Sequence record: PZ496580.1
DNA: 64,000 nucleotides
Reading direction: 5' to 3' (one strand)
DNA from: a phage
Position numbers and translations under genes: made by a program. The notes under the pieces were generated by a model that was not told where the DNA came from, made no database searches, and saw only the letters and a program-made list of their open reading frames with translations. This document shows positions 6,600 to 60,900 of this stretch, piece after piece. Positions within the stretch are counted from its first letter, which is position 1, and each line of letters opens with the position of its first letter.

Positions 6600-6628
6600 T
6601 TATGCTATAGGCGTGATCTGGTGTCAAT
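6600..6628 (-). promoter_or_regulatory. sigma70-type early promoter cassette
   Basis: approx; TTGACA-17-CATAAT. Confidence 0.5.
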
Positions 6629-6654: not shown

Positions 6655-6680
6655 ATAAAAAGCCGACACTAAGGTCGGCT
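6655..6680 (-). terminator. intrinsic terminator (copy 2 of duplicated module)
   Basis: approx; same GCCGACACTAAGGTCGGC hairpin plus T-tract as at ~6147..6172. Confidence 0.5.
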
Positions 6681-9181: not shown

Positions 9182-9475
9182 TTATAATGCTTTATATGCG
9201 TATTTCATAAATTTGTCTGCCACTTCATTGGCATGTTCAGCTTCTACGCCTGATTCGAGAACAATAGCTAGGTCGGTTTCGTCATTCCCGCCGTACCAAT
9301 GATTTGATGTTCGATTTTTTTCAATTGGAAATTGGTCACTTTTATCTGTGCGACAAAATACATCTAAATGCTCGTCGATGTAAAAGATCCAATCTTCATA
9401 AAGAATAACGGTATTAGCCAGATTTTTATTGCCTTCAACGAAAGGTTCGGCTACAAACAAATTAGTATGTTCCAT
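9182..9475 (-). CDS. paralog family member E (divergent)
   Basis: trimmed to MEHTNLF start with GAGGAA SD; motifs IFYIDEHLDV, SNHW, AIVLESG. Confidence 0.4.
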   Translation of the reverse strand: MEHTNLFVAEPFVEGNKNLANTVILYEDWIFYIDEHLDVFCRTDKSDQFPIEKNRTSNHWYGGNDETDLAIVLESGVEAEHANEVADKFMKYAYKAL

Positions 9476-9491
9476 AACAATTTCCTCAAAA

Positions 9492-9683
9492 TTATACAAC
9501 TTCGTAAACTTCCCAATGTTCAGCGCCAGCACGCTTAACGAAAAGGTTTTCTTTGATGTTATTCATAAACGTATGAATGGATTTAATGCGGTTGGAAGGT
9601 TTCCAGTCTTCGTTAGCATTGCGGCGATACATTATAACATTACCAGATCGCTTATATTCAGCAACCATTTTAAGACCACACAT
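9492..9683 (-). CDS. hypothetical protein (63 aa)
   Basis: ORF track; GAGGAT SD. Confidence 0.4.
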   Translation of the reverse strand: MCGLKMVAEYKRSGNVIMYRRNANEDWKPSNRIKSIHTFMNNIKENLFVKRAGAEHWEVYEVV

Positions 9684-13371: not shown

Positions 13372-13692
13372 TTATTTATAAATTTCGACGATCTGCGCTG
13401 GCGTCAATCCGTCTACATGAATCAGGCTATCAAGACCAAAACTACGAAAACCTTCAACTGCAATTTCATATACTGGCAAAGATGTTTCTGATTCTTTACG
13501 CGGTTTTTCAACATTCGGAACTAACCATTTTTCGTATGTTTCGAAAGGCATCAGTGCCGGATCTCGCGTGGCGATCATCTCGCGGACAGTACCATCTTTC
13601 TTAGTAAACTGCAAAGAGTGAGTACCGACCGAAAACATTTTCTTTAGTGCTTCACGAAGTGCGATATTATCAATTTGTTCAGTCATTATCAA
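13372..13692 (-). CDS. hypothetical protein (106 aa)
   Basis: ORF track; overlaps cd by 14 nt. Confidence 0.4.
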   Translation of the reverse strand: MIMTEQIDNIALREALKKMFSVGTHSLQFTKKDGTVREMIATRDPALMPFETYEKWLVPNVEKPRKESETSLPVYEIAVEGFRSFGLDSLIHVDGLTPAQIVEIYK

Positions 13693-26283: not shown

Positions 26284-26308
26284 TAAAAAAGCCTCCCCGA
26301 AGGGAGGC
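26284..26308 (-). terminator. intrinsic terminator after gene 32
   Basis: approx; GCCTCCC-CGAA-GGGAGGC followed on minus strand by TTTTTTATTGCC. Confidence 0.6.
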
Positions 26309-57949: not shown

Positions 57950-58704
57950 TATAAACCTACCTTCGCTTTCATCAATTCAATCCACGACGCATCAATCGGA
58001 AGCCCGTATTTCACGCGTTCTTTTTGTGCTGGCGTTAAGTTCTCATACTTAGAAAGAGATTCAATCAAAACGCTGGTATATTTTAGCACGATTTCGGTAT
58101 TGTTTGCAATAGCCTTAAGTTTTTCTTCTTTCTTGTTGATTTCGCTAAGGGCTTGCTTGAGATCTGCAATTTTCTGATAACGTTCTTCCATACGGAAGAG
58201 AGTATTTTTAATCGCTCGCTCGGCTGCCTCTGCTTTCTCCGGTTCGTTGTGCTTTTTGTGGCGCTCGATTGCTAATTTCTTTTCTTCGATTGCCATTTCC
58301 TGATTTTTGATGCGATTCTCGTTAAGTTCGATCCACTCGATGTACTTCGCACGTAGGGCAATTTCATCATCAGAAAGTTTACCGTTAGTTCCTAGTTCCT
58401 GGATCTCTTTAAGAGATTCGATAGTGTGATTGCCACGGAAAGAATTGTATTTCAGTTTAACCGGAATTACATTGCCATCAACATATCCCAGATTGCAATC
58501 AATGCGCTCTAAGGAGAGTCCGTCATCACCTTCACCGAAAGCCTCACCTGAATAGGCGCAATGAGTCTGACGGTAAATGTTACGCACAGTGACTAAGCTC
58601 ATAGAGAAGTCTTTGTTGCGACGTGAAGCGCCAGCCATGATAGAGTTCAGACGGAAAACAACCAGCGCCAATTCTTCGTTAGATTTAAAAGCAAACAGTT
58701 TCAT
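57949..58704 (-). CDS. hypothetical protein with degenerate HNH-like segment and C-terminal coiled coil (srd position)
   Basis: 251 aa; CAYSGE...LSLERID.N.GYVDGNV resembles an HNH-type motif; rest Lys/Glu-rich helical. Confidence 0.35.
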   Translation of the reverse strand: MKLFAFKSNEELALVVFRLNSIMAGASRRNKDFSMSLVTVRNIYRQTHCAYSGEAFGEGDDGLSLERIDCNLGYVDGNVIPVKLKYNSFRGNHTIESLKEIQELGTNGKLSDDEIALRAKYIEWIELNENRIKNQEMAIEEKKLAIERHKKHNEPEKAEAAERAIKNTLFRMEERYQKIADLKQALSEINKKEEKLKAIANNTEIVLKYTSVLIESLSKYENLTPAQKERVKYGLPIDASWIELMKAKVGL

Positions 58705-58733
58705 AATTGATTCTCCTTAGTTGGTATGTGTGT

Positions 58734-58762
58734 ATTATTGTCTATCTGGTTTGTGCTGTCAA
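58734..58762 (-). promoter_or_regulatory. sigma70-type early promoter cassette
   Basis: approx; TTGACA-17-AATAAT. Confidence 0.35.
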
Positions 58763-58765
58763 CAC

Positions 58766-59269
58766 TTAAATTAAAGAAAATTTGTAAATCTCTATCAGAT
58801 CGCCGTTACATGCGTAAACTTCCTCGATCTCATCAAGGATCATGGTCGTCCCTGTCTTGTATATGCACTCGCGCTCATCCGCCAACATAGCATACAAAGA
58901 CAGTCGAGTAGTCGGATTGTCATACTCTTTAGACACCACTCGATCAATAGCATGTTCGTAATAATTCATGCAAGGCTTGGTAGGTTTTATTGCAATAATC
59001 TTTCCTGTTGCATAAACATCGGTTGCAAAGTCCTCTGCTGTTGATTGCAGTGGCGTAAAGCTCATAGGACGCTCTACAACGAAAGAATCACCTACAATTA
59101 AGGTATCCAGCTTACGGCCTTCTCTTTTGCTCACACCGCGATACAAGGCTTCATGATGCACTAACCGTTCAGTCTTTTCAATCAATCCATTAAGGATCGA
59201 CATATCGATATTTTCTTTAGAGTTCATCACTTCATCAATGATGTTAAGTTCTTCTGGTGTAAATTGCAT
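58766..59269 (-). CDS. ModA/ModB-like ADP-ribosyltransferase
   Basis: 167 aa; ordered R (ALYRG), ST (QSTAED) and ExE (DERECI) motifs with spacing typical of R-S-E ARTs; lies between dda side and gene 56 as T4 mod genes do. Confidence 0.5.
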   Translation of the reverse strand: MQFTPEELNIIDEVMNSKENIDMSILNGLIEKTERLVHHEALYRGVSKREGRKLDTLIVGDSFVVERPMSFTPLQSTAEDFATDVYATGKIIAIKPTKPCMNYYEHAIDRVVSKEYDNPTTRLSLYAMLADERECIYKTGTTMILDEIEEVYACNGDLIEIYKFSLI

Positions 59270-59272
59270 AAT

Positions 59273-59302
59273 AAAAAAGCCTCCAATCTTTCGACGGGAG
59301 GC
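59273..59302 (-). terminator. hairpin plus U-tract that also sequesters the downstream SD
   Basis: approx; GCCTCC-12nt loop-GGAGGC followed by TTTTTTATT ATG; 3' arm contains the GGAGG SD of the ART-like gene. Confidence 0.45.
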
Positions 59303-59331
59303 ATAATAAAACCATTATAGAGTAGTGTCAA
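59303..59331 (-). promoter_or_regulatory. sigma70-type early promoter overlapping hairpin
   Basis: approx; TTGACA-17-TATTAT; predicted start site falls inside hairpin 5' arm. Confidence 0.4.
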
Positions 59332-59338
59332 CTAATTT

Positions 59339-59863
59339 TTAGTAGCCGCGTTCTTGACGGGCGAAGTTTTCAGCATTTTTCAGATAGTACAGCTTGAAGA
59401 TATCCTTAGCGGTTAAACCTAAGCCCAGCATTTTAATCAGCACAAAATGCCAGATATCGATCAATTCCATCGCAATTTCGGTTTTATCGTCATCTGACAG
59501 ATCAGCAAATTTACGCGCTCGTGCTTCGCCGTGGTTCTTCTTCCACACTTTAGTAATTGCGCTTGCATCTTTGCCATTTGACATGCCACCCAGGGCAACA
59601 TAAAGTTCTCGTGTCTCGTCGTCGATTGCGTCATCCCACAACTTCATCCAGTCAAGGATCTCCCCGCAAGTTTCCAGCTTATCAGGATGCGGCACCCACT
59701 CAAATTTATCAGCTAGTGCGACCTGTAAGCCTTTTTGCATATCTAACATTACTTGCAGCGGATCTTTGCCGCTAGTGATTGCCTCGGAATACGCAATACC
59801 AGCTTTAGACATAGTTTCGTCGCTAACCAGACCAGCACAAGAATTAAATTCTGACATATTCAC
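59339..59863 (-). CDS. 56: dCTP pyrophosphatase-like NTP pyrophosphohydrolase
   Basis: 174 aa (T4 gp56 ~171) all-alpha MazG-like features (ELIDIWHFVL), position between mod region and gene 61. Confidence 0.45.
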   Translation of the reverse strand: MNMSEFNSCAGLVSDETMSKAGIAYSEAITSGKDPLQVMLDMQKGLQVALADKFEWVPHPDKLETCGEILDWMKLWDDAIDDETRELYVALGGMSNGKDASAITKVWKKNHGEARARKFADLSDDDKTEIAMELIDIWHFVLIKMLGLGLTAKDIFKLYYLKNAENFARQERGY

Positions 59864-59871
59864 CTCATTAA

Positions 59872-60900
59872 TTAAAATTTACAATATTTCATAAACCGCA
59901 TTTTAGCCATCAGACCTTGTACGGTGTTCTCTTTGATGTATTCCATGATCTGGTCGCGTGTAGCGCCCTCGTCCTGAATCATGGCGTTAACGTCTTTAGA
60001 ATGCCACGGGCAACGATCCCACAAAACAATCTTTTCCCCTGCATTGATAAACTTTTCCAGTCGGTGCATTGTATCGGCTGACCGTGGTTCCGCATCAAGT
60101 ACAAACACTCGCTGGTCTGGGAAAGGGATTTCATCTAATCCCAAAGTACCGCCAGTAATTGCACACCCGTTATCAATAAACAATGAATCGATCGGACCTT
60201 CTAAGAAATACACTGGCTTACTCGGATCGGCGCGTTCAAGACCATAGACCTTACTCGCTAACTCATGAGTTTTAATCGTCATATATTTGGTCTTTCCGTA
60301 ATCCTTTCTCAATGCTCTCCCCTGAATGGATTCTATCTTGTTCTCGCGGTTAAAGATAGGAATCACTAAACGCGGTTCAGGTTGTGGATTCTTGAAAGTA
60401 TCAGCTTTAATATGATTTGCTACCTTTTGCCATTCTCTCGTGAAATACAGAAGATCCCATTTATCGTGGGGAATGCAACGATCACTGACATACTTTATTA
60501 TAGGATGATTAGCCGGAAGAGTATCTAATCTCTCGCAGAAAGGCAATGTTTGCACTTTCTTAATCTCCGGCTTTTCTACCTTTTTCAGTGGCTTGAACGT
60601 GGTGTTCTTGTGGTCGCCTTGTTCCTTCCGTCGTTCCATAAGCCATTCCCTGAATAGGTCCGGCTTATATTGTTTAAGAAATTCACCTAACGGCTGATTG
60701 TAGTTACAGTTGAAACACCCGGCTCGCAAACTATCCTTATAGGTATAGATACGGAATCGCGCTTGAGTATGATTTTTCTTTGAGTCACCGCAGATCGGAC
60801 AACTACAGACCAGCGTAAATGAGCTAGTATGCAACCGTTTAAAATTTCGTTCGCCGTATATGGCTTTTTCCGCTATTTCATAATCTGCGTAGTAAATCAT
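59872..60900 (-). CDS. 61: DNA primase
   Basis: 342 aa (same as T4 gp61); N-terminal zinc ribbon CSCPICGD...CFNC and TOPRIM-like acidic core. Confidence 0.85.
   Translation of the reverse strand: MIYYADYEIAEKAIYGERNFKRLHTSSFTLVCSCPICGDSKKNHTQARFRIYTYKDSLRAGCFNCNYNQPLGEFLKQYKPDLFREWLMERRKEQGDHKNTTFKPLKKVEKPEIKKVQTLPFCERLDTLPANHPIIKYVSDRCIPHDKWDLLYFTREWQKVANHIKADTFKNPQPEPRLVIPIFNRENKIESIQGRALRKDYGKTKYMTIKTHELASKVYGLERADPSKPVYFLEGPIDSLFIDNGCAITGGTLGLDEIPFPDQRVFVLDAEPRSADTMHRLEKFINAGEKIVLWDRCPWHSKDVNAMIQDEGATRDQIMEYIKENTVQGLMAKMRFMKYCKF

Follow-up and report, generated by a model that had tools for sequence, protein, structure and literature searches.

Introduction

Among the closest described systems are the genes e, soc, 49 and I-TevI of phage T4, whose long transcripts sequester the Shine-Dalgarno (SD) sequence and/or the AUG in a helix; a promoter located in the DNA of the 5' strand of that helix gives rise to transcripts devoid of this strand, which are translated (Uzan and Miller, 2010, PMC3014915; McPheeters, 1986, cited there). 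Here we describe a comparable predicted arrangement in a 64,000-nt stretch of phage DNA (record PZ496580.1), referred to as the window throughout. It resides in the 69-nt spacer which, on the minus strand, separates gene 56 (dCTPase) from a gene encoding a ModB-like ADP-ribosyltransferase (ART). The window belongs to the Krischvirus (RB49-like) group, and the region is 98–99% identical to RB49, GEC-3S, MIZ, Makalu, phi1 and JSE.

In RB49 and phi1, spacers of similar composition are known as PeSLs, about 50 composite cassettes that unite an A/T-rich tract and a consensus sigma-70 promoter with an SD, an ATG and a stem-loop; the stem-loop takes one of five positions (subclasses), one being downstream of the -10 hexamer (Arbiol et al., 2010, PMC2839356; Comeau et al., 2014, PMC4122927). 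The stem-loop was proposed to act as a terminator or attenuator of upstream transcription, and the cassettes to serve modular shuffling, indels and the formation of mini-circles (PMC2839356, PMC4122927). A few members other than the 56/modB cassette were shown to be active as promoters and terminators (PMC2839356), and neither of the two papers mentions translation or SD masking (PMC2839356, PMC4122927).

For the 56/modB spacer, the hairpin and the promoter were each predicted in 2006, and the cassette class was described in 2010. For RB49, a TransTerm terminator was reported at 9430–9453 ("modB<--56", confidence 100, 10 bp) and an early promoter, Pe:9496, spanning 9446–9496 with a score of 11.3 (Nolan et al., 2006, supplements, PMC1524935). 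As window coordinates equal those of RB49 plus 49849, this terminator maps exactly to 59279–59302 and the 3' end of the promoter model (9446) to 59295. A promoter with its -35 and -10 at the same site is annotated in GEC-3S, and a terminator over the hairpin in the Makalu phages and TB34. Nolan et al. (2006, PMC1524935) described an A-rich region at -40 to -44 in phages of this group; early promoters of RB49 generally have a C-rich discriminator, and MotA-type middle promoters are absent from RB49.

Our analysis indicates that the hairpin is probably a terminator and an SD-masking element at once, bypassed by the promoter in which its 5' arm is embedded, and that it would tie the ModB-like ART to a single early promoter and insulate it from upstream transcription. 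Such an SD-gating layer, as well as its recurrence at Mod ART genes of T4-type phages, appear undescribed in the searchable literature.

Architecture of the 56/modB Spacer and Predicted Accessibility of the SD

Read 5' to 3' on the minus strand, the spacer and its borders have the order TAA aaattag TTGACA ctactctataatggttt TATTAT GCCTCC c gtc gaaa gat t GGAGGC TTTTTT att ATG (Table 1), which gives the ART gene the ribosome-binding layout GGAGG-N10-ATG. The first-pass annotation of this DNA had placed a promoter, a hairpin with the SD and a U-tract at 59273–59331, followed by an ATG, and a check of the sequence found all these elements in place, on the minus strand. The TTGACA-17-TATTAT promoter that it had put directly upstream scored 11/12 in our promoter scan, and its -35, spacing and -10 are retained in JSE and in L011, a diverged relative described below.

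The 24-nt hairpin folds at -13.8 kcal/mol, its 6-bp outer stem being separated by a 1x1 internal loop from a 3-bp inner stem that is capped by a GAAA tetraloop; in its 52-nt context the value is -15.0 kcal/mol (z = -3.5), with 1 of 200 shuffles equally stable. A dedicated scan of the minus strand of the window revealed 12 hairpin-plus-U-tract sites, five of them at -13 kcal/mol or stronger, whereas a mean of 0.15 hairpins of such strength is expected from 40 first-order Markov random sequences; hence a hairpin this strong in a 69-nt spacer is no chance event. The standard terminator scan missed it only because loops were limited to 8 nt and no internal loop was allowed. The earlier description of a terminator-type hairpin seems well founded, given the TransTerm confidence of 100 in RB49, the Makalu annotation and the GC-rich stem followed by U6. 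With its 6 + 3 bp stem, its stability, GNRA loop and U6 tail, the element has the sequence features expected of a Rho-independent terminator. Yet, in contrast to a canonical one, it is situated downstream and not upstream of the next promoter, with the SD of the following gene serving as 3' arm and the SD-to-AUG spacer as tail.

Transcription from sigma-70 promoters usually starts 7–8 nt past the -10 hexamer. At this distance the start is predicted at 59296 or 59295, which would exclude the entire 5' arm; as the arm belongs to the discriminator of the promoter, it should be missing from promoter-proximal RNA. Partition-function calculations on GGAGG gave an SD opening cost of 10.8–11.2 kcal/mol in read-through RNA versus 2.4 kcal/mol in RNA beginning at 59295/6, and 7.3 kcal/mol for a hypothetical start at 59300. 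In the read-through RNA at least 99.8% pairing of the SD bases is predicted. Pairing of the SD with an anti-SD in RNA reading through from gene 56, as claimed in the first-pass annotation, is thus what the model predicts. The same annotation had transcripts of the local promoter begin inside the 5' arm and leave the SD free: the free SD agrees with our calculations, whereas the predicted start falls immediately after the arm. In two diverged relatives, L011 and L012, the 7th position past the -10 is an A.

We propose that the spacer is an RB49-type PeSL cassette in which one hairpin would do two jobs on RNA arriving from gene 56. Together with the U-tract it would terminate most of this RNA, and in the molecules that read through, its 3' arm would lock the SD of the ART gene against an anti-SD encoded in the discriminator (-6 to -1) of the gene's own sigma-70 early promoter. 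RNA started at about 59295/6 would carry no 5' arm and therefore form no hairpin; it would be neither terminated nor masked, and would be translated. Such a design would probably serve to make a dangerous enzyme dependent on a class of promoters that falls silent within minutes, giving a short early pulse of synthesis. It is known that T4 ModA and ModB are lethal when over-expressed, toxicity being documented for these two proteins only (PMC2988021, PMC3014915). The GGAG exposed in the short RNA would also be open to RegB, and the masked GGAG would not. Taken as a whole, the interpretation given in the first-pass annotation is supported by these models.

The likeness to T4 e, soc, 49 and I-TevI lies in an SD that is modelled as paired in upstream-initiated RNA, and would extend to the transcription start, which is placed past the 5' strand by prediction only. 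However, the internal promoter of those genes is a late one (gp55, TATAAATA) and serves an early-to-late switch, whereas that of 56/modB is an early sigma-70 promoter, which would provide insulation from upstream early or prolonged transcription. No late-promoter motif TATAAATA occurs in the 56/modB spacer. In addition, the 56/modB hairpin carries a terminator U-tract that sets it apart from the four T4 cases.

Comparison With the Other Cassettes of the Window

We found 39 promoter-SD-ATG cassettes on the minus strand of the window. In common with its siblings, the 56/modB cassette has an A-tract, the promoter hexamers, a C-rich discriminator and a leader with the TCGAAA motif, in which GTCGAAAG resembles the ATCGAAAC of many of them; the A/T-tract position is occupied by aaaaagttg or aaaaagtag in other cassettes. 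As in PeSLs of the same phage group, an A/T-rich tract and a consensus sigma-70-like early promoter are combined with a stable stem-loop and end in an SD and an ATG at the 3' end. The stem, in turn, is of a different kind. A typical PeSL stem consists of a G-run followed by a C-run, placed between -35 and -10 or across the -10, with both arms 5' of the start and a free SD. Typical window cassettes conform to this, their C-rich discriminator pairing backwards in stems such as GGGGATC..GATCCCC or GGGAGTAG..ACTCCC, with both arms 5' of the start site and the SD open. In contrast, the promoter spacer of 56/modB is devoid of a G-run and the discriminator GCCTCC pairs forwards with the SD, forming a stem that is C-rich 5' and G-rich 3' (GCCTCC/GGAGGC), spans the predicted start, ends in the SD and is followed by a full U-tract. 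Neither the GN-loop-CN stem type of PeSLs nor its usual placement is found here, and the subclass "downstream of -10" fits the cassette loosely.

These differences are reflected in the accessibility of the SD-to-AUG region. When the cassettes were ranked by the difference in opening cost between read-through and promoter-proximal RNA, 56/modB came first of 39 with 9.8 kcal/mol (median 0.3, sd 2.1), so SD gating is special to this cassette and no property of PeSLs. The runner-up, at 6627–6565 on the minus strand, reaches 6.1 kcal/mol; its CCC discriminator forms a weak pairing with GAGGG, the SD of an ORFan of 59 aa. There, the G-run of the promoter spacer is lost (cacgcctatag) and the local hairpin amounts to only about -5.7 kcal/mol. 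This cassette may represent an intermediate form of the modB arrangement.

The arms and tail of the modB hairpin are nearly identical to those of a terminator GCCTCCCTTCGGGGAGGCTTTTTTAT (GCCTCCCTTCGGGGAGGC+TTTTTTAT) at 26308–26291 on the minus strand, which lies where terminators are ordinarily found, some 30 nt 5' of the -35 of the following cassette (26257). Another two terminators, identical to each other (GCCGACCTTAGTGTCGGC+TTTTTATT), were found at 6679–6662 and 6172–6155 (minus strand), about 500 bp apart and each 5' of a near-identical cassette; they make up tandem PeSL units of the kind proposed to form mini-circles. The cassette that follows 56/modB, TTGACA-17-AATAAT at 58762–58734 (minus strand) upstream of srd, corresponds to RB49 Pe:8927 (score 28.9) and is devoid of a stem-loop, its SD being open in both transcript types (difference 0.9).

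Conservation in the Krischvirus Group

The spacer was present in 59 phage records, all at least 98% identical, and diverged relatives were therefore sought through the protein. A scan of IMG/VR with a degenerate pattern returned only two true sites besides chance matches, and a metagenome scan gave near-identical loci only. Useful variants came from two protein clusters (63% and 74% identity), reached via their contigs, and from one IMG/VR contig. We refer to these relatives as L007 (IMG/VR contig, 75% protein identity), L012 (ENA contig, 74%) and L011 (Logan contig, 63%).

We observed that the spacer is better preserved than nearby synonymous positions. Its identity is 93% in L007 and 99% in L012 versus 50–72% at third codon positions of the flanking genes, and in L011 75% versus 48%. 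Three places account for the variation of the spacer: the stretch between -35 and -10, the 1x1 internal loop and the U-run, which is 5–7 long. In the internal loop of relatives C is changed to U, C to A (which creates an A-U pair) or U to C. The variant L011 has TTGACA-17-TATGAT, the stem GCCCCC/GGGGGC and a GAGA loop. Here a U-A pair of the stem is replaced by C-G, a change that weakens the SD (GGGGG) and keeps the pairing.

Between gene 56 and the modB cassette, JSE (L004 524–1500) and G37-3 carry an inserted homing-endonuclease gene, encoded on the opposite strand. Homology to the window breaks within the promoter spacer, between TTGACA and AATGG; despite the insertion, TTGACA, the 17-nt spacing, the -10 and the hairpin are intact. 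The junction fits PeSL-type recombination at the 56/modB cassette. A different HNH homing-endonuclease gene, accounting for about 577 bp of extra sequence, is located between genes 61 and 56 in AV108 (L003 647–1210) and seven similar records, and is absent from the window.

Leaders of Mod ART Genes in Other T4-Type Phages

Of the comparisons made, that with T4-type phages outside the group proved the most informative. The modB leaders of T4 and RB69 (Table 1) are non-homologous to the spacer of the window, yet both fold into long hairpins, of -20.7 kcal/mol (z = -5.6) in T4 and -22.8 kcal/mol (z = -6.5) in RB69. In both, the gene's own early promoter supplies the 5' arm with its -10 hexamer and discriminator, and GGAGG and the AUG make up the 3' arm. 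The gene is orthologous or analogous, as the first Mod ART gene, upstream of srd, and in all three phages a discriminator-side 5' arm faces an SD-side 3' arm. The T4 and RB69 hairpins differ from that of the window in sequence origin, in a longer helix that includes the -10 hexamer and the AUG, and in the absence of a U-tract.

Of ten other T4-type phages, nine have such a hairpin in front of their first Mod ART gene: T4, RB69, IME08, Salmonella STP4-a, Klebsiella MY02, Serratia X20, Erwinia Gravdalen, Edwardsiella PEi26 and Enterobacter Q7622. These hairpins comprise 13–19 bp at -17 to -23 kcal/mol, are devoid of a U-tract and are non-homologous to that of the window. Since the SD/AUG is masked there with no U-tract, it is masking, and not termination, that appears as the conserved feature. 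For these phages except IME08, opening of the translation initiation region (TIR) costs 10.6–19.1 kcal/mol in read-through RNA versus 2.4–5.2 in proximal RNA; the IME08 values (3.8 and 0.1) were excluded as uninformative, having been computed from a misannotated start. In IME08 (NC_014260.1, L023 locus 941) the annotated modB start is ATC, and an ATG 15 nt downstream, preceded by GGAGG, is most likely the real one.

The leaders of these phages were compared through per-sequence folds indexed to the -10 and the ATG. Variants of the -10 are matched by changes near the AUG (TATGAT with ATCATG, TAGTAT with ATACTA, TATAGT with ACTAT), the first discriminator positions each show three pair types (A-U, G-C and C-G), and the helix is kept through register shifts. 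A MAFFT/RNAalifold alignment of the T4-type leaders is out of structural register and underestimates the helix; it still shows three compensated pairs. A consensus early promoter occupies the same position at all homologous T4-type loci.

As a control, 85 genes in the first 50 kb of T4 were examined. TIR masking of modB, 14.7 kcal/mol, was among the top four (median 4.9), and the metric recovered known masked genes, with gene 49 beside modB and soc also high. Among 12 T4 genes with a proximal early promoter, modB showed the largest read-through/proximal difference, 11.9, followed by 5.8 for the next gene. Predicted masking of the TIR in long transcripts at 9.5–15.7 kcal/mol, level with 49 and soc, was observed as well for T4 genes 55, motB.2, 39.1, 62, I-TevII and 55.6; motB.2 and 55.6 have an early-promoter-like site 27–30 nt upstream.

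The only published hint that we found is a remark that T4 modB RNA is able to adopt a stable fold by which RegB is blocked in vitro (Durand et al., 2006, PMC1702504). In the searchable literature we found no description of the T4-type modB hairpin as a promoter-bypassed translational gate or regulatory element. It is possible, and we put it forward tentatively, that from Tevenvirinae to Krischvirus the first Mod ART gene is guarded by a discriminator-encoded anti-SD and translated only from immediate-early promoter-proximal RNA, the gate being fused with a terminator in Krischvirus.

Alternative Explanations

Several observations weigh against a promoter-bypassed hairpin that both terminates and masks. 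Covariation in the 8-sequence Krischvirus alignment amounts to one compensated pair in one sequence, which was matched in 64 of 500 shuffles and is alone non-significant. The hidden Markov model score of RB49 Pe:9496, 11.3, is modest beside the 28.9 of the next promoter, Pe:8927, the -10 is TATTGT in the metagenomic relative L006, and the SD-to-AUG distance of 10 nt is rather long. Both -10 variants, TATGAT in L011 and TATTGT in L006, retain A at position 2 and T at position 6. Of the ten other T4-type phages, PHB12 has no such hairpin, and in vivo the T4 modB RNA is still cut by RegB despite its structure (Durand et al., 2006, PMC1702504). Co-transcriptional kinetics may weaken the masking, and conservation of the spacer could stem from PeSL-mediated recombination that homogenises the cassettes (PMC2839356).

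One alternative is an ordinary terminator of the 41-61-56 unit and an independent early promoter that were compacted, with the overlap of the SD incidental and the masking unselected. We consider this unlikely, albeit worth serious attention: it agrees with the TransTerm call in RB49 and with the near-identical terminator at 26308–26291 in which no SD is involved, promoter/terminator cassettes are generic in this phage, C-rich discriminators are general in RB49 early promoters, and G-rich SDs readily pair with C-rich sequence. Yet, among the 39 cassettes only 56/modB, and weakly 6627, masks its SD, and in L011 the SD itself is mutated with the pairing kept. The strongest point against incidental overlap is that T4-type phages mask the SD/AUG at the Mod ART gene with no U-tract at all. 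Another explanation would retain the cassette mainly as a PeSL recombination linker at the DNA level, with effects on RNA being secondary. PeSLs have been proposed to mediate indels and mini-circles, homology of JSE and G37-3 breaks in the promoter spacer beside the inserted homing-endonuclease gene, and the spacer is more conserved than nearby synonymous sites. Such a role is compatible with a gating hairpin; as the main reason for the cassette it seems quite improbable, for it leaves unexplained the SD as stem partner, the compensation in L011 and the parallel Mod ART hairpins of T4-type phages, and the stem, C-rich and then G-rich, is the reverse of the GN-loop-CN motif proposed as the recombination target.

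It is also conceivable that the promoter is weak or inactive and the ART is made from read-through RNA only; the hairpin would then be a constitutive attenuator holding the output of a toxic enzyme from all transcripts very low. GC-rich discriminators can destabilise sigma-70 open complexes, which together with the low score of 11.3 and the existence of the TATTGT variant would speak for such a scenario. We regard it as very improbable, since the -35, spacing and -10 are conserved across diverged spacers and an insertion junction, the promoter matches the consensus at 11 of 12 positions and is preceded by an upstream A-tract, and a consensus early promoter is kept in the same position at all homologous T4-type loci. 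Moreover, masking of about 11 kcal/mol combined with a strong terminator would leave almost no protein from read-through. A hairpin that shuts off RNA from gene 56 and is bypassed by the early promoter thus remains the explanation we favor.

The limits on dose and timing of host-takeover ARTs of the ModA/ModB type have so far been left without explanation. The 56/modB element offers a concrete and easily mutated RNA switch which would confine ART synthesis to one early promoter, and its parallels in T4, RB69 and a further seven genera make a general rule for the Mod ART gene seem likelier than a quirk of one phage. If true across T4-type phages, this would be a conserved and previously undescribed control of a host-takeover toxin, at a time when the biology of T4 ModB (RNAylation, modification of S1 and EF-Tu) is under active study. 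PeSL cassettes have to date been treated solely as modules for recombination and for promoter/terminator function; the element would imply that they may have a translational layer as well. In annotation and in engineering it would represent a compact 60-nt insulator composed of a terminator, a promoter and a conditional ribosome-binding site.

Genes, Coordinates and Minor Features of the Locus

The local gene order, all on the minus strand, is gene 41 helicase, gene 61 primase, gene 56, the 167-aa gene, srd, a Y01A-family gene and dda (see Table 1 for the features of the spacer and its two flanking genes).

Table 1. Coordinates of features at the 56/modB locus and of the modB leaders of T4 and RB69; positions refer to the window unless an accession is given.
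Feature	Position	Strand	Basis
Gene 56 (dCTPase/dUTPase-like)	59339..59863	-	open reading frame (ORF) list; Pfam dUTPase_2 match; dCTP pyrophosphatase annotation in relatives
Gene 56 stop TAA	59341-59339	-	sequence
A-tract	59340-59336	-	sequence
A/T-rich tract AAAAATTAG, UP-element-like, directly 5' of -35, overlapping gene 56 stop	59332..59340	-	sequence
-35 hexamer TTGACA	59326..59331	-	promoter scan; unchanged in 8/8 aligned variants including JSE and L011 with different flanks
-10 hexamer TATTAT, 17 nt 3' of -35	59303..59308	-	promoter scan
5' arm GCCTCC (anti-SD), at discriminator positions -6 to -1/+1	59297..59302	-	sequence, fold
Predicted transcription start: C 59296 (7th nt past -10) or G 59295 (8th, pyrimidine-purine context)	59295..59296	-	sigma-70 spacing
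Inner hairpin: C/U 1x1 internal loop, 3-bp stem GUC/GAU, GAAA (GNRA) tetraloop	59285..59296	-	fold
3' arm GGAGGC, holding SD GGAGG (59284-59280) of ART gene	59279..59284	-	sequence, fold
U-tract TTTTTTATT (T6 59278-59273, then ATT): putative terminator tail and SD-to-AUG spacer	59270..59278	-	sequence
ATG of ART gene	59269	-	sequence
ModB-like ART gene, 167 aa	58766..59269	-	ORF list, family matches
T4 modB leader	NC_000866.4 13131-13200 (L021 1632-1700)	-	fold
RB69 modB leader	NC_004928.1 about 13397-13460 (L022)		fold

The 167-aa protein is assigned to PF26816 Mod_ADP_RT in precomputed tables and matches phrog_832, "RNA polymerase ADP-ribosylase" (E = 1e-20); our own Pfam scan of this protein gave no match. 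Its alignment with T4 ModB shows 33% identity over 113 aa (BLASTP 8e-11) and that with T4 ModA 23% over 159 aa (BLASTP 2e-6), the LYRG motif being aligned and DERECIY lying opposite the DEQEVM of ModA. The RB49 counterpart of the gene is annotated modB. Judged by its homology to ModA and ModB and by an R-S-E type catalytic motif, the product is a predicted Mod-type ART. The first-pass annotation had called the gene ModA-like: the Mod ART identity holds, and the nearest T4 relative is ModB and not ModA.

A scan of 58600–60000 against Rfam, at E up to 1, matched no family. We rejected a bidirectional terminator, as on the plus strand the stem continues into ATAATAAAAC with no T-run, and likewise a small upstream ORF from the ATG at 59304, which is out of frame and preceded by no SD. 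An 11-nt direct repeat, TTTTATTATGC, flanks the hairpin at 59311–59301 and 59276–59266 (minus strand; 35-nt spacing). As a trace of an insertion or duplication it was discarded, for it is not retained in L011; its two copies, one made up of "-10 plus G" and the other of "U-tract plus ATG", are probably alike by chance.

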